Shown in pieces: positions 10,656-61,663 of a DNA stretch of 64,000 nucleotides. The stretch's first letter is position 1. Each line of letters opens with the position of its first letter. Source of the stretch: Minisyncoccota bacterium (lineage in GTDB: Bacteria > Patescibacteriota > Minisyncoccia > Phycocordibacterales > UBA9973); NCBI GenBank assembly GCA_041663005.1, contig JBAZRK010000002.1, forward strand, positions 205,402 through 269,401. Reading direction: 5' to 3'. Under the pieces are notes generated by a model. It searched no databases, was not told where the DNA came from, and worked only from the letters and a program-made list of their open reading frames with translations. The translations under genes were made by a program, and so were the position numbers.

Positions 10656-10661
10656 AAAATT

Positions 10662-10684
10662 AAAAGCCCCGAACGGGGCTTTTA
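10662..10684 (+). terminator. intrinsic terminator inside the ribosomal cluster, after rplB
   Basis: AAAAGCCCCGAACGGGGCTTTT: GC stem with a T-tract. Confidence 0.6.
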
Positions 10685-10686
10685 AT

Positions 10687-10714
10687 TTGACTTTTACTGC
10701 CAATTTGCTACTAT
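10687..10714 (+). promoter_or_regulatory. internal promoter TTGACT-N16-TACTAT upstream of rpsS
   Basis: -35 at 10687-10692 and -10 at 10709-10714. The spacer is almost identical to that of the tuf promoter (CAATTTGCTACTATG). Confidence 0.45.
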
Positions 10715-13577: not shown

Positions 13578-13612
13578 GACGTCGGAGATCAAGGGTTTAG
13601 ATGTCCGACGTC
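13578..13612. repeat. palindromic intergenic repeat, family A copy 1 (GACGTCGGAGATC…GATGTCCGACGTC)
   Basis: 13-nt arms at 13578-13590 and 13600-13612 with one mismatch, lying between rplN and rplX. Confidence 0.6.
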
Positions 13613-13623
13613 AGAAAAACAAA

Positions 13624-13842
13624 ATGAAAATCAAGAAAGGCGACAGCGTAATAATAATGGCAGGCAAGGATAAAGGTAAATCCGGTAAAGTTGTGCATGC
13701 CCTACCGAAAAAGAATAAAGTCGTAGTGGAGGGTCTTAATATGACCAAACGACACCAGAGGCCAAGGAAGTCCGGCGAGAAGGGGACAGTTTTAAGTATG
13801 GCTATGCCTATCGATGTGTCTAATGTAAAAAAAGCAAAATAG
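13624..13842 (+). CDS. rplX: 50S ribosomal protein L24 (short form)
   Basis: KOW-like motif MKIKKGDSVIIMAGKDKGK. Confidence 0.8.
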   Translation: MKIKKGDSVIIMAGKDKGKSGKVVHALPKKNKVVVEGLNMTKRHQRPRKSGEKGTVLSMAMPIDVSNVKKAK

Positions 13843-13866
13843 TTCGACGAGCTCACTATAAATAAT
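13843..13866 (+). promoter_or_regulatory. conserved 24-nt intergenic motif, family B copy 1 (GTTCGACGAGCTCACTATAAATAA)
   Basis: Lies immediately after the rplX stop and 11 nt before the rplE ATG; near-identical copies sit at 15172-15196 and 16753-16776. Confidence 0.5.
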
Positions 13867-13877
13867 TCTATATAAGT

Positions 13878-14426
13878 ATGAAGCATTCAACAGTAAAAGA
13901 AAGAGAAATACAGAGTTTTGAAAAAATGAAAGGAGCTTTTCATTATAAAAACTCAATGGCGGCACCACGTTTAGAGAAAGTGGTGGTCAATACCGGCACC
14001 GGCACCGCTATGAAAAAGGATAAAAACAAAAACGAAGCAATAGCTTTGCGATTGTCGAAAATTACCGGACAGAAAGCCTCTCTCCGTGGAGCCAAGCAGT
14101 CAATTTCATCCTTTAAGGTTCGACAGGGAGACCCTATCGGCGCTATGGTGACCCTACGAGGCAAAAGAATGTTTGCCTTCCTTGAGAAGCTCATAAACGT
14201 AGCTCTACCCCGCACGAAGGACTTCCGAGGTATCAAGCGCGGCGCAGTGGACAACATTGGTAACCTAACCATCGGTATCAAAGAACACACAATTTTCCCG
14301 GAAACAGCAGATGAAGATATTCGCGACGTTTTCGGTCTGTCTATCACTCTTGTCTCTACGGCAAAAACAAAAGCTGAAGGTCTCGCTTTCTTCGAAAACT
14401 TGGGCGTGCCTTTCAAGAAGGAATAA
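13878..14426 (+). CDS. rplE: 50S ribosomal protein L5
   Basis: L5-family sequence (…PRLEKVVVNTG…AMVTLRG…); position in the spc cluster. Confidence 0.85.
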   Translation: MKHSTVKEREIQSFEKMKGAFHYKNSMAAPRLEKVVVNTGTGTAMKKDKNKNEAIALRLSKITGQKASLRGAKQSISSFKVRQGDPIGAMVTLRGKRMFAFLEKLINVALPRTKDFRGIKRGAVDNIGNLTIGIKEHTIFPETADEDIRDVFGLSITLVSTAKTKAEGLAFFENLGVPFKKE

Positions 14427-14436
14427 TTTCGTACGT

Positions 14437-14465
14437 TTGACTATTGAGCTTTAATTTGCTAGTAT
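14437..14465 (+). promoter_or_regulatory. internal promoter TTGACT-N17-TAGTAT upstream of the S14 gene
   Basis: Third copy of the TTGACW…AATTTGCTA(C/G)TAT promoter block. Confidence 0.4.
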
Positions 14466-14579
14466 CGGAGTAAGGGAATACCGCTGTGATTAATCCGCTT
14501 TTCTCCTCCGACGCCTTATATTATAAGGGTTCGGAGAAAAAAAGTGAGATATTAACAGAGCGCTCCCGAATAATTATTT

Positions 14580-14765
14580 ATGGCAAAAACATCAGTTATC
14601 GCAAGAAGCAAAAAGAAACCTAAATTTTCAACTCGAGCAAAAAATCGATGTTTTAAGTGTGGGCGCGGGAATGCCTTTATGCGCGATTTTGGAATTTGCC
14701 GAATCTGTTTCAGGGAATTAGCAAATGAAGGAATGCTGCCTGGAGTCAGGAAGTCTTCTTGGTAG
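14580..14765 (+). CDS. rpsZ: 30S ribosomal protein S14, zinc-binding type Z
   Basis: 61 aa with [10 protein letters not shown]…CRICFRE zinc-ribbon cysteines. Confidence 0.85.
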
Positions 14766-14785
14766 TAGAATAGATCACAAAATAT

Positions 14786-15172
14786 ATGGATTCAATTTCA
14801 AACATGATAATAATAATGAAGAACGCTTCGCTCGCCGGTAAAGAAACCGCGGTTGTTCCTTATTCCAAGTTGAAGGGCGCTATAGGTGACTGTCTCCAGA
14901 AAGCCGGCTATGTCGGTGAAATTTCGAAGAAAGTGAAGAAAGGACACCCGATTATGGAAGTAAAACTTTTGTACGTGGACAAAAAACCCAAAATTGCCGA
15001 AGTTGAAAGAATTTCCAAACAGTCTCGCCGAGTGTATTTCGGTATGAAAGATATTCATACTGTCAGAAACGGTACAGGGCTTTTAGTGCTTTCAACACCA
15101 AAGGGAATTTTATCAGGCAAGGATGCCCGCAAAGAGCAAGTGGGAGGTGAAGCTTTATTTAGAATTTGGTAG
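14786..15172 (+). CDS. rpsH: 30S ribosomal protein S8
   Basis: 128 aa, after S14; S8-like C-terminus (LSTPKGILSGKDARKEQVGGEAL). Confidence 0.85.
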   Translation: MDSISNMIIIMKNASLAGKETAVVPYSKLKGAIGDCLQKAGYVGEISKKVKKGHPIMEVKLLYVDKKPKIAEVERISKQSRRVYFGMKDIHTVRNGTGLLVLSTPKGILSGKDARKEQVGGEALFRIW

Positions 15173-15196
15173 TTCGACAAGCTCACTATAAATAAA
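15172..15196 (+). promoter_or_regulatory. family B intergenic motif copy 2 (GTTCGACAAGCTCACTATAAATAA)
   Basis: Lies between the rpsH stop and rplF start; 23/24 identical to copy 1. Confidence 0.5.
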
Positions 15197-15202
15197 AATT
15201 TT

Positions 15203-15736
15203 ATGTCACGAATAGGAAAACAAGAAATTTTAATACCAGCAGGAATCAAGATCACCAAAAGTGGCAACACTTTGTCAGTGGTGGGCCCGAAGGGGACCCT
15301 GTCGAAAATATTTCGTGATGATATAACAATGGAAGTTACCGACAAGTCTGTGAAGCTTGATATCAAACGCAACGATAAGTTTTCCAAGGCTCTCTGGGGT
15401 ACCTACGCTTCCCACATCAAGAATATGATTAAAGGCGTAACCACTCCGTATCAGAAGAAGCTCGTGCTCGAAGGAGTTGGATTCAAGTCAGAAGTGAAGG
15501 GCAAGGAACTTCATTTGGCGCTTGGCTTTTCTCACCCAGTTGTTGTTAAAATTCCCGAAGGCATTGCTATGAAAGCCGAGAAGAACGTAATTTCCGTAGA
15601 AGGCATTGATAAGGAATTAGTAGGTAGCTTCACTGCTGCCGTACGTGCCTTAAAGAAGCCGGAGCCATATAAGGGTAAGGGTATGCGTTACGAAGACGAA
15701 GTAATACGTCGCAAGCAGGGCAAGAAGACAGTTTAA
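15203..15736 (+). CDS. rplF: 50S ribosomal protein L6
   Basis: MSRIGKQEILIPAGIKIT is the canonical L6 N-terminus. Confidence 0.85.
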   Translation: MSRIGKQEILIPAGIKITKSGNTLSVVGPKGTLSKIFRDDITMEVTDKSVKLDIKRNDKFSKALWGTYASHIKNMIKGVTTPYQKKLVLEGVGFKSEVKGKELHLALGFSHPVVVKIPEGIAMKAEKNVISVEGIDKELVGSFTAAVRALKKPEPYKGKGMRYEDEVIRRKQGKKTV

Positions 15737-15743
15737 AATAACA

Positions 15744-15779
15744 GACGTCGGACATCAAGAATCCCAGATGTCCGACGTC
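15744..15779. repeat. palindromic intergenic repeat, family A copy 2 (perfect 13-bp arms GACGTCGGACATC / GATGTCCGACGTC)
   Basis: Arms at 15744-15756 and 15767-15779, lying between rplF and rplR. Confidence 0.65.
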
Positions 15780-16750: not shown

Positions 16751-16752
16751 TG

Positions 16753-16776
16753 GTTCGACAAGCTCACCATAAATAA
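16753..16776 (+). promoter_or_regulatory. family B intergenic motif copy 3 (GTTCGACAAGCTCACCATAAATAA)
   Basis: Lies between the rpsE stop and the L15 start. There is no L30 gene between S5 and L15. Confidence 0.5.
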
Positions 16777-16777
16777 T

Positions 16778-28294: not shown

Positions 28295-28918
28295 ATGGCA
28301 ATCATAAAAAACTTTTCAGACAAACACGGCCACTCCCAAATAAAAATTTGTGTTTCAGGCGCCGCCGAAACTGGGCATTGTGGCATTGATGCCCTTGATA
28401 CCGCCAAGGAGCTTGGCAGAGAGATAGCTCGACAGGGAGCCATAATAGTTACCGGAGCCACTACTGGATTCCCACTGTGGTCGGCTATGGGGGCCAAAGA
28501 AGAAGGAGGAATTTCAATCGGCATTTCGCCCGCAGCCTCAGAGCGCGAGCACGTGGAATCCTATAAGTTACCGGTTGATTATATGGATATGATTATTTAT
28601 ACCGGCTTTGGCTACCCAGGGAGAGATATTTTATTAACGCGTTCTGCCGACGCAGTTATTTGCGGCTGCGGACGGGTAGGAACCATTCACGAGTTCACGG
28701 TGGCCTTCGAAGATGGCAAGCCTATCGGTATTTTAGAAGGGGATTGGGAAACCGACAAAGAGATAAAAAGTATTATAGACAATGGTCACCGCCCCAATGC
28801 AAAAATAGTTTTTAGCGACGACCCGAAAAAACTAATTGAAGAAGTTATTGCTCTGGTGAAGAAAGATAAGATTGCAGAGTACAAAATAGTACCGCCGTTA
28901 GGAACAGATACACAATAA
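28295..28918 (+). CDS. LOG/TIGR00725-family Rossmann-fold nucleotide-binding protein
   Basis: IIVTGATTGFPLWSAMGA…GGISIGISP…ICGCGRVGTIHEF pattern typical of the TIGR00725/LOG family. Confidence 0.45.
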   Translation: MAIIKNFSDKHGHSQIKICVSGAAETGHCGIDALDTAKELGREIARQGAIIVTGATTGFPLWSAMGAKEEGGISIGISPAASEREHVESYKLPVDYMDMIIYTGFGYPGRDILLTRSADAVICGCGRVGTIHEFTVAFEDGKPIGILEGDWETDKEIKSIIDNGHRPNAKIVFSDDPKKLIEEVIALVKKDKIAEYKIVPPLGTDTQ

Positions 28919-28947
28919 AAAAACCCCGCCGAAGCGGGGTTTTTTTA
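28919..28947. terminator. bidirectional rho-independent terminator
   Basis: AAAAAACCCCGCCGAAGCGGGGTTTTTTT lies between the convergent 28295..28918 gene and rplT. Confidence 0.8.
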
Positions 28948-28959
28948 TTGGGAATTTAT

Positions 28960-30935: not shown

Positions 30936-30956
30936 GAACATTGATAAGAAAATATG

Positions 30957-31354
30957 GGGATGCAAGGCATAGACAGTTGGCTCATTGTCATCGATGCATG
31001 TCGAGAATGAACGTAATCTCGTGAAAATTCGTTCAATAGCTTAATTGCAAAATTAGCTTCCAAAACTAAAGCTGTTGTTTCTTCATACTTTAGTATGAAG
31101 GACTTTGTTTTAGTTCCAGCTTTCGCGTAAGCCAAGGTTGGCGTCTCTCTTATAGACTTCCGATATATAAGCTGAGGTGTAATATTATCGGGATAGGGGA
31201 AAGAATGTCTCGGTTTTCTCCCGAAACAAAGAGACTCGGTTAAAAAATATTTGGCACGCTTCATAATTTTTTAATCTAAACCAAAAAGCGCGATAAACAT
31301 GTAGACTTCCTTACAAAAACCTTCTGCACGGGGATTCGATTTCCCCCATCTCCA
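30957..31354 (+). ncRNA. ssrA: tmRNA (ssrA), tRNA-Ala-like ends, candidate 27-aa tag reading frame
   Basis: The 5' GGGGAUG (30957-30963) pairs with the 3' CAUCUCC (31347-31353), including the G3·U70 wobble that is the alanine identity element. Discriminator A at 31354. T-arm GGGGA-UUCGAUU-UCCCC at 31330-31346. An AAUAGC element sits before a GCA resume codon at 31047, and the frame runs to UAA at 31128-31130 encoding AKLASKTKAVVSSYFSMKDFVLVPAFA. Lies immediately downstream of smpB. Confidence 0.55.
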
Positions 31355-31396
31355 CACATTTTAATTTTAAAACATGAGCTTAACCTTTCATGGATT

Positions 31397-33388: not shown

Positions 33389-33462
33389 CCGTCCTTAGCT
33401 CAGTTGGTTAGAGCACAGAGCTTATACCTCTGGGGTCCTTGGTTCGAATCCAAGAGGACGGA
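33389..33462 (+). tRNA. tRNA-Ile with anticodon UAU (manual fold)
   Basis: Acceptor CCGTCCT/AGGACGG, D-arm GCTC-AGTTGGTTA-GAGC, anticodon stem CAGAG/CTCTG with loop CTTATAC (anticodon TAT), T-arm CTTGG-TTCGAAT-CCAAG, discriminator A; CCA not encoded. Confidence 0.6.
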
Positions 33463-41343: not shown

Positions 41344-41362
41344 AAGTAAACAGAAAACAAAA

Positions 41363-41386
41363 ATGTACATAATATATTACGTACAT
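41363..41386. repeat. 24-nt AT-rich palindrome ATGTACATAATATATTACGTACAT (copy 1; one mismatch to a perfect palindrome)
   Basis: Lies between a + strand gene end and the 3' end of the minus-strand tRNA-Ser; a perfect copy is at 61179-61202. Confidence 0.6.
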
Positions 41387-41399
41387 TTTCGTTTTGATG

Positions 41400-41488
41400 C
41401 GGAGCCGGCTGGATTCGAACCAGCGGTGCCTTTTAAAGGGCACACCTCTTTAGCAAAGAGGCACGTTAGACCACTCTGACACGGCTCC
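41400..41488 (-). tRNA. tRNA-Ser (anticodon GCU), long variable arm
   Basis: Reverse complement GGAGCCG…CCTCT-TTGCTAA-AGAGG…GCTGG-TTCGAAT-CCAGC-CGGCTCC-G; anticodon GCT; the D-arm is irregular. Confidence 0.55.
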
Positions 41489-52520: not shown

Positions 52521-52576
52521 AATCAGACATCGGACGCGAAAGAATTCCTACGTCCGACGCCTAGAATGATACAATT

Positions 52577-54343: not shown

Positions 54344-54362
54344 TTAATTTCAATAGTTATTA

Positions 54363-54395
54363 AGAAAAAACGACCAAAGGGTCGTTTTTTCTTTT
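54363..54395 (+). terminator. rho-independent terminator after the first pilin gene
   Basis: AAAAAACGACCAAAGGGTCGTTTTTTCTTTTT. Confidence 0.7.
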
Positions 54396-61133: not shown

Positions 61134-61178
61134 AATACTGAAAGCGCTTAGTATATCATATATGATAGATTAAGGGTT

Positions 61179-61202
61179 ATGTACGTAATATATTACGTAC
61201 AT
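61179..61202. repeat. perfect 24-nt palindrome ATGTACGTAATATATTACGTACAT (copy 2), with adjacent palindromes TATCATATATGATA and TTACATATGTAA
   Basis: Exact inverted repeat; lies between the convergent ligA and the minus-strand CsaA/tRNA-Ser unit. Confidence 0.65.
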
Positions 61203-61226
61203 AATGTACTTACATATGTAAGGAGA

Positions 61227-61550
61227 TTAGCGGACGATACTTCCAGGCTCTACGTCCTCTGCAGGGTGGAGTAGGATGGGGGCGTCGCCAGAACTCGCCG
61301 CAAGCATCATACCCTGACTTTCCAGTCCGCGCATTTTGCGAGGCTCGAGGTTTACAATGAAAGGCATTTCTTTGCCCGGGAGTGTCGAAAGATCGGCTAC
61401 GAATTCCGCAATGCCCGCTAGTATCTGCCTCTCCTCGGTGCCGAAATTTACCATCATTCGCACTAGTTTATCTGAGTCCGGAATTCTCTCCGCGGAAATT
61501 ACTTTCCCTATTCGTATATCTAATTTTTTGAAATCTTCTATTGTAATCAT
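61227..61550 (-). CDS. tRNA-binding protein (CsaA/Trbp111-like OB-fold domain)
   Basis: DIRIGKVISAERIPDSDKLVRMMVNFG…RQILAGIAEF…NLEPRKMRGLESQGMMLAA is the Trbp111/MetRS C-domain signature. The start was moved to the ATG at 61550 because the track ORF overlaps the tRNA. Confidence 0.6.
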   Translation of the reverse strand: MITIEDFKKLDIRIGKVISAERIPDSDKLVRMMVNFGTEERQILAGIAEFVADLSTLPGKEMPFIVNLEPRKMRGLESQGMMLAASSGDAPILLHPAEDVEPGSIVR

Positions 61551-61578: not shown

Positions 61579-61663
61579 CGGAGGGTAGGAGATTCGAACT
61601 CCTGGTGGATTGCTCCACACACGCTTTCCAAGCGTGCGCACTAGACCGCTATGCGAACCCTCC
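61579..61663 (-). tRNA. tRNA-Ser (anticodon GGA), long variable arm
   Basis: Reverse complement GGAGGGT-TC-GCA-TAGCGGTCTAG-TGC-G-CACGC-TTGGAAA-GCGTG-…-AGGAG-TTCGAAT-CTCCT-ACCCTCC-G. Confidence 0.65.

Follow-up and report, generated by a model that had tools for sequence, protein, structure and literature searches.

GC-rich hairpins in the spc cluster of a Minisyncoccota genome as probable copies of a miniature dispersed palindromic repeat

Why do GC-rich hairpins stand between the ribosomal-protein genes of a bacterium of the candidate phyla radiation (CPR, Patescibacteria)? The question is raised by a 64,000-nt stretch of the Minisyncoccota contig JBAZRK010000002.1 (the window), in which one such hairpin lies between rplN and rplX (copy 1), a second between rplF and rplR (copy 2), and a decayed third in the pil locus (Table 1). 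A first-pass annotation of this DNA had taken them for a palindromic repeat family, REP-like (repetitive extragenic palindromic) and possibly mobile, and had also offered mRNA stabilisation, RNase processing and attenuation as explanations. We consider it probable, at roughly 60%, that the two hairpins and the decayed third are copies of a miniature dispersed palindromic repeat, carried as tolerated selfish or neutral DNA; the family is common in Patescibacteria and is most likely not a regulator specific to L24 or L18.

Hairpins of the window and their relatives in other genomes

Copy 2 consists of GACGTCGGACATC-AAGAATCCCA-GATGTCCGACGTC, a perfect 13-bp inverted repeat around a 10-nt loop, and copy 1 has the arms GACGTCGGAGATC and GATGTCCGACGTC around the loop AAGGGTTTA, with a single G/G mismatch in its stem. 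The first-pass annotation had described both stems correctly; it was also right about the A/T-richness of the spacers and about the flanking genes, which Pfam identifies as L14/L24, L6/L18, L5/S14 and PilT-like T2SSE/PilC-like T2SSF. In copy 1, 8 nt separate the L14 stop codon from the start of the hairpin, and 11 nt its end from the L24 ATG; for copy 2, the corresponding distances are 7 nt from the L6 stop codon and 14 nt to the L18 ATG. The core TCCGACGTC occurs four times in the 64 kb, each time as an arm of copy 1 or copy 2, where 0.16 occurrences would be expected, and none of 100 shuffles reaches four. Stem-loop energies, which the annotation had proposed to check, are -24.0 kcal/mol (z = -7.8) for copy 2 and -20.5 kcal/mol (z = -6.9) for copy 1; the palindrome is far beyond chance and strongly folding. 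The third hairpin, GACATCGGACGCG-AAAGAATTCCT-ACGTCCGACGCC, is down to 7 bp of contiguous pairing and folds weakly as RNA (z -1.3), and retains the loop motif AAGAAT(T)CC. Each stands alone among ribosomal-protein and pil genes, with distances of 2.1 kb and 37 kb from one to the next. Copy 1 is identical in two independent Logan assemblies of the same organism (L001 and L002; loci from other assemblies are cited by L numbers throughout). The organism has neither L30 nor Shine-Dalgarno sequences, and its closest matches are Patescibacteria metagenome-assembled genomes (MAGs).

Thirty related hairpins of the window and other genomes were aligned to build a covariance model (R1), which was searched with all filters off. 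In the window it finds exactly three members, all of them among its training sequences, and nothing further at E <= 1. Of two degenerate relatives that the first-pass annotation had listed, the one in the pil locus is recovered, whereas the one at about 14500-14545, in the rplE/S14 spacer, goes undetected even at E <= 10. In the alignment of 30 copies, 98.2% of stem cells pair, and at 6 of the 13 stem pairs both sides have changed (as in GTCGGAC/GTCCGAC to GTTGGAC/GTCCAAC); double changes maintain the stem. The element measures about 31-37 nt and starts GACGTC, and each arm is a pair of GACGTC/GACATC hexamers at a spacing of 7 nt. An arm has two such units only (GACGTCG followed by GACATC, with 5/6 positions identical at the 7-nt offset; in sister copies, GACGTCG followed by GACGTC), and L006 and L023 hold longer arrays. 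The loop between the arms, AAGAWTCCCA, is semi-conserved across classes and is retained by many copies; a second subtype has the arms GACGTCGGACGTC and loops of 5-6 nt.

An exact scan with the pattern GACGTCGGANNTC-N5-15-GANNTCCGACGTC, made over one genome per species (185,579 species, 596 Gb), returned 58 loci where, by our own estimate, chance would yield fewer than one. At least 31 of the 58 are labelled Patescibacteria, and these span many classes (Paceibacterota, Nomura-, Saccharibacteria, Ryan-, Giovannoni-, Jorgensen-, Staskawicz- and Portnoybacteria), with multiple copies in single MAGs: at least 6 in CAZKWN01, 3 in JAUSGE01 and 2 in MFTY01. L011 and L012 contain the 36-mer of copy 2 unchanged, and L003 has its reverse complement; in co-directional operons both orientations of the element occur, at about 8 to 4. 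About 20 loci lie outside Patescibacteria, some of them inside longer GACGTCG heptamer arrays. These hosts include Alloalcanivorax, Neolewinella (2 copies), Gemmatimonadota (3 genomes), a deltaproteobacterial MAG and some actinomycetes, and a GACGTCG-based hairpin or longer arrays are found in L006, L023, L027, L038, L043, L049, L056 and other non-CPR genomes. The palindrome pattern had no matches in viral contigs, which gives no evidence of a phage vector. We found no prior description of palindromic or heptamer repeats of CPR bacteria in a literature of which our coverage is incomplete.

The orthologous spacers were compared in 80 spc loci of relatives, whose L5 proteins are 64-85% identical. 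The median rplN/rplX spacer of these loci measures 25.5 nt, against 54 nt in the window, and the median rplF/rplR spacer 19 nt, against 57 nt; the excess in the window is about the length of the element. A member of the family stands anywhere in the cluster in only 6/80 loci (L111, L119, L095, L131, L061 and L081), filling four spacers in L111 and the same two as in the window in L119; only 4/70 rplN/rplX spacers and 3/41 rplF/rplR spacers are occupied by it. The remaining spacers are short or hold other sequences: unrelated, lineage-specific palindromes (CAGATAGAGCTTTAGACTCT..., AAGGACGGTCCTT... in both orientations in L062, and CCCTCTCC.../GGAGAGGG) or heptamer and other short direct arrays (GTTATAAAG, ATTACGA). 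Conversely, L012, a close relative (amino-acid identity of 85% for L2 and 88% for S3), carries the identical 36-mer in opposite orientation between tuf (EF-Tu) and rpsJ (S10), where the spacer of the window is empty and 23 nt long. L024 was also considered as a filled/empty comparison and was rejected, as its downstream flank is not orthologous to the window. Because the same element stands at different sites, and the same sites are empty or differently filled, we regard it as a dispersed, turning-over repeat and not as a fixed regulatory hairpin. The first-pass annotation had held that identical conservation of the hairpins in the spacers of relatives would point to a fixed regulatory structure; what relatives show is their general absence from those spacers, and the occurrence of the identical 36-mer at other loci in other genomes supports the repeat family that had been proposed.

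Copies in frame within genes, and heptanucleotide arrays

Of the low-GC copies returned by the genome scan, more than half stand within long open reading frames (ORFs). These in-frame copies all come from other genomes; there are none in the window. The host genes, recognised by Pfam domains that flank or span the copy, encode trigger factor, GatB, a Mur ligase, TrmD, KsgA, UvrC and LeuRS, and an in-frame site can be common to orthologues of different species (L018/L054/L055, L035/L058, L020/L039, L010/L031, L040/L042 and L007/L033). The predicted element-encoded peptide is QTSDIKNSPMSDVK in trigger factor and DVGRQNSQTSDVG in GatB, where it forms an insertion, adding about 8 residues when set against the Thermotoga structure 3AL0_B; in KsgA the copy replaces a variable loop and leaves the length unchanged. 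In most copies the three forward frames are open, and the long-loop copies inside ORFs are nearly all in forward orientation. The 36-mer of the window has a TGA in one reverse frame, and only 7/30 copies are free of stops in all six frames.

In TrmD the site of the element coincides exactly with a hypervariable linker of 2-25 residues (120 homologues). This linker carries the element peptide (RRRTSKSKTSDV) in some homologues, is minimal in some, and has a 7-residue-periodic peptide in others; the DNA behind two of the periodic peptides is an in-frame heptanucleotide array, (GAATTAA)x4-5 and (GCGACAA)x4. Heptamer arrays thus occupy the same TrmD site as the palindrome. Such arrays are a feature of these genomes: when tandem repeats were counted at equal stringency for all periods in 0.84 Mb of loci, period 7 accounted for 11 arrays and each other period between 3 and 14 for 0-2; shuffled sequence gave none. 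Arrays of GAATTAA, GCGACAA, AATTACG, CTAAAGC and other heptamers dominate the tandem repeats of these CPR loci, both in frame and between genes, and a given heptamer can reappear in other genomes and at other sites.

Heptamer repeats are over-represented in bacteria (PMC4692102), and the 7-nt periodicity of the window element is common to the heptameric simple sequence repeats known from other phyla: TAACTGA in Beggiatoaceae, cyanobacteria and Bacteroidetes, GGGAATC in Xanthomonas, and GGGGAYT and STRR in Nostoc. On its other strand the loop of our element reads GGGATTC, GGGAATC or GGGGATT, which are heptamer units reported from Xanthomonas and Nostoc. Like the window element, heptamers of the TAACTGA type are intergenic, stand just upstream of starts that lack a Shine-Dalgarno sequence, are found in ribosomal-protein operons and occur occasionally in ORFs (PMC4679880). 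Some arrays of Xanthomonas are inverted and can form stem-loops (PMC4692102), and the window element is likewise palindromic. Unlike these direct arrays of variable length, however, the window element is a fixed palindrome of two plus two units with a specific loop, and it is the whole 36-mer that is copied to different loci.

Alternative explanations and known kinds of repeat

Several observations weigh against a dispersed, mobile repeat and must be set beside those that favour it. No transposase, no other recurrent gene family and no gene of the RAYT type (REP-associated tyrosine transposase, a Y1/HUH enzyme whose gene REPs flank) was found by Pfam among the 149 ORFs within 2.5 kb of 45 copies, and a linked transposase was accordingly rejected; a RAYT gene could still lie elsewhere in these genomes. 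The flanks of about 45 copies have no consistent target-site duplication, the window has few copies (3 in 64 kb), and the GACGTCG-based hairpin is found in some non-CPR phyla as well. No presence/absence polymorphism between near-identical strains, which would mark recent movement, was seen in the two short Logan contigs matched through exact proteins; both have copy 1, and the L6 and L18 proteins gave no record. Finally, hairpins of one family or another are found at every junction of the relatives' clusters, and the two junctions occupied in the window are those most often filled (16/70 for rplN/rplX and 8/41 for rplF/rplR, against 1/41 for rplR/rpsE, the rarest), L111 and L119 filling the same two spacers with variants of their own. 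This shared filling could reflect a preference for the site, or selection for a stem-loop there.

The latter would accord with a different account of the hairpins, which we consider possible, if doubtful: that they are selected RNA stem-loops of the polycistronic ribosomal-protein mRNA, serving as barriers to 3'-exonucleases, as processing sites for RNase III, E or J, or to uncouple the translation of adjacent cistrons in an organism without Shine-Dalgarno sequences. The sequence family would then only reflect how hairpins are supplied. The stability of the hairpins, their maintenance by compensatory changes and their stereotyped placement (a stop codon lies 5-9 nt ahead of them and the next ATG 8-18 nt beyond) all suit such a role, as does the preferential filling of the two junctions. 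There are precedents, since Correia elements are RNase III substrates and ERIC elements are cut by RNase E (PMC10969869), and for TAACTGA heptamers within ribosomal-protein operons a part in translational regulation has been proposed (PMC4679880). Yet about 77-80% of relatives manage without a hairpin at those junctions, many of their spacers being only 3-20 nt long, and the same element is found in unrelated operons, in both loop orientations, and in frame within coding sequence. A stem of 13 bp is also short for a canonical RNase III substrate, which counts against this account. With both orientations in use and copies inside coding sequences, stabilisation or RNase processing is weakened as the reason for the existence of the element.

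It is less likely still that the element is a DNA site for a protein, such as the operator of a dimeric regulator, a gyrase or architectural site of the kind found in bacterial interspersed mosaic elements (BIMEs), an uptake sequence tied to type IV pilus and competence genes, or a site connected with a GACGTC-specific modification system. An inverted repeat of 13 bp with a 9-10 bp spacer, each arm itself nearly palindromic with two GACGTC-like hexamers, would suit such a site; the loop is semi-conserved across classes, and one copy stands in the pil locus. These features are outweighed by copies in coding regions and in mid-operon, away from promoters, and by stems that covary to other sequences, which a fixed binding site could not tolerate. 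The window shows no depletion of GACGTC (9 sites, where by our own estimate composition would give about 11). A DNA uptake sequence (DUS/USS) was rejected on density, all occurrences of the core TCCGACGTC being confined to the two hairpins: such sequences, motifs of 9-12 nt in coding and non-coding DNA alike, come at roughly one per kb, and the window element at about 1 per 20 kb. Least likely of all, and in our judgement very improbable, is that the hairpins are intrinsic terminators or attenuators which partition the S10-spc transcript. They are GC-rich intercistronic stem-loops, and the minus strand is T-rich after each of them (TAATTTTG, TGTTATTTT), so that antisense transcription could be stopped there; on the sense strand, however, the tails are AGAAAAAC and AAGAAGAC, without a U-tract, which means that transcription is not terminated. 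A terminator scan flags neither hairpin, the real terminators of the window are of another build (short loops and T-runs; Table 1), and essential genes lie downstream. The attenuator that had been among the first-pass suggestions is unlikely for the same want of a sense-strand U-run.

If the hairpins are indeed copies of a dispersed repeat, it remains to be asked which known kind they most resemble. Like the REPs and REPINs of E. coli and Pseudomonas, the element is an imperfect palindrome of about 20-40 nt, dispersed, lineage-specific and placed in operon spacers as a co-transcribed stem-loop, without target-site duplications and in both orientations. Unlike REPs, which are strictly extragenic, the family also occurs in coding sequence (the window copies are extragenic), and it lacks the GTAG head of REPs, starts with GACGTC, has arms built of 7-nt-spaced GACGTC units and is seen at low copy number. 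Rickettsia palindromic elements (RPEs) share with it the in-frame insertion into housekeeping genes, and into spacers, of a reduced-genome bacterium (PMC10969869); they are about 100-150 bp long, with a conserved sequence or peptide, and form Rickettsia-specific families, whereas our element differs in sequence, has about 31-37 nt, adds roughly 8-12 residues or replaces a loop, and is found in many CPR classes. Correia/NEMIS and ERIC elements are likewise small, non-autonomous and co-transcribed, and as RNA their inverted repeats pair into helices, which RNase III cuts or which lay open sites for RNase E (PMC10969869), but these are MITEs (miniature transposable elements of the inverted-repeat kind) of 100-160 bp with terminal inverted repeats and with TA or other target duplications, none of which are seen here. 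Assignment to the MITE class was not upheld, as MITEs measure 50-500 bp and have a target-site duplication, against 35-36 nt for the element.

The 36-nt length and the CPR hosts had also suggested a CRISPR or TIGR array, which was rejected: the copies stand singly, do not form an array and have neither a Cas nor a Tas gene. TIGR arrays are tandem and adjoin Tas genes (PMC12045711). We conclude that the best-supported description is a miniature dispersed repeat which has the form of a REP, tolerates coding sites as RPEs do, and is related to the heptamers of other phyla.

A more distant parallel is offered by the GC clusters and 'byp' elements of yeast mitochondria, short GC-rich palindromes (about 30-50 nt) that occupy a compact A/T-rich genome, its coding regions included. 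The byp elements belong to an organelle and are bypassed by the ribosome; in our element the reading frame is kept, and to judge from the sequence plain translation would be the simpler reading.

Surroundings of the hairpins and bearing of the family on Patescibacteria

The hairpin at about 14500-14545 is not a member of the family; it is the variable apical stem of a leader of about 110 nt upstream of rpsN (S14)-rpsH (S8), and its TCCGACG is found again in the orthologous stems of L076, L085, L098 and L116. The leader is conserved in about 50 relatives, with a consensus structure of 18 pairs, 12 of them backed by double changes, and the invariant motifs AUC...UUUCUCCUU...AAGAAA...GAUAU. Neither the leader nor the hairpins have an Rfam 15 match, at the gathering threshold or at E <= 10. 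The leader is a candidate for autoregulation by a ribosomal protein, for which S8 or S14 is our guess. Inserted genes, 0.4-2.8 kb of them, break up the spc cluster after rplE in about 30/50 relatives, making this place in mid-cluster a hot spot for insertion; among them are prepilin-like (N_methyl) genes, a reverse transcriptase in L071 and, in L111, an AAA_14/DUF4143 ATPase.

The spc spacers also hold a second dispersed repeat, (TAG)TTCGACAAGCTCACTATAAATAAT, at junctions that differ from genome to genome, always in sense orientation and always directly after a stop codon. It contains CTCACTATA, the core of the T7 promoter, which is probably a coincidence, as about 0.5 matches to such a 9-mer are expected per 64 kb. 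Elsewhere in the window, A/T-rich palindromes that share TGTACRTAATATATTACGTACA adjoin two tRNA genes; these may be another repeat family or an operator.

Table 1. Coordinates of the palindromic copies and of other features, in the window unless a locus number is given
Feature	Position	Strand	Context or remark
Family copy 1	13578-13612	+	rplN (L14)/rplX (L24) spacer; R1 score 44.7 bits on +, 37.9 bits on -
Family copy 2	15744-15779	+	rplF (L6)/rplR (L18) spacer; R1 score 58.8 bits on +, 47.9 bits on -
Decayed family copy	52526-52561	+	spacer between PilT-like and PilC-like genes; R1 score 38.1 bits, E 1.7e-10 (model trained partly on this copy)
Sigma-70-like promoter TTGACT-17-TAGTAT	14437-14465		promoter of rpsN leader
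Promoter and leader	14437-14579		runs to rpsN ATG at 14580
Second spacer repeat	13840-13866, 15170-15196, 16751-16777	sense	also in L070 (two copies), L078, L090, L102
Terminator-like hairpin AAATTAAAAGCCCCG-aa-CGGGGCTTTTAATTT	10657-10688		between rplB and next gene, in S10 cluster; short loop and T-run
Other terminators	1198-1248, 28911-28952, 54362-54393		short loops and T-runs
A/T-rich palindromes sharing TGTACRTAATATATTACGTACA	41354-41395, 61147-61229		adjoin tRNA genes 41400-41488 and 61579-61663
tmRNA gene	30956-31357		Rfam RF00023, 115 bits
tRNA gene	33389-33462		
tRNA genes	41400-41488, 61579-61663	-	
Heptanucleotide arrays	L141 10223-10257, 10396-10425; L142 10225-10255		also in L129, L131, L102, L047, others
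Insertions between rplE and rpsN leader	L062, L065, L071, L074, L076, L078, L081, L084, L090, L096, L098, L101, L102, L110, L111, L124, L126, L127, L132, L134, L139		

How might a repeat of this kind be kept and spread? Copies would settle where extra sequence is tolerated, that is, in short A/T-rich operon spacers and, in frame, in variable surface loops of proteins. Those of the window would, on the folding model, be co-transcribed in the S10-spc mRNA as a stable stem-loop, and the A-rich stretch of 11-14 nt before the next start would stay unpaired, so that the operon would still work; an influence on mRNA decay or processing, if there is one, would be incidental. We infer both the selfish or neutral nature of the element and its spread as a hairpin. 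Our preferred guess, by analogy with REP/RAYT or IS200/IS605, is that a single-stranded hairpin would be copied by a trans-acting factor; alternatively, polymerase slippage, as for heptamer arrays, could combine with fold-back and ectopic gene conversion.

More tentatively, Patescibacteria may hold undescribed, ultra-small (about 36 nt) palindromes built of heptamers, which machinery acting in trans would actively copy or overwrite at permissive sites, in-frame variable loops of essential proteins included, giving related genomes 'dialects' of their own, palindromes or heptamer arrays, at shared sites. The same process may possibly explain the excess of heptameric repeats in bacteria, and the sharing of sites by palindromes and heptamer arrays offers a concrete system for asking how heptameric repeats arise.

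The pair in the window are ordinary-looking REP-like hairpins; the unexpected part is the spread of the family, its in-frame copies and its sharing of sites with heptamer arrays. For the annotation of CPR proteins, the element explains odd inserts of 8-12 residues and 7-residue-periodic peptides, and if the family is real as we read it, it is a possible source of variation in protein loops. The finding also warns against reading such hairpins as terminators or as riboswitch-like regulators. CPR genomes rank with the smallest and most streamlined on record; if true, a repeat family that persists in many of their classes, within ribosomal operons and essential enzymes, would be a CPR counterpart of the RPEs.

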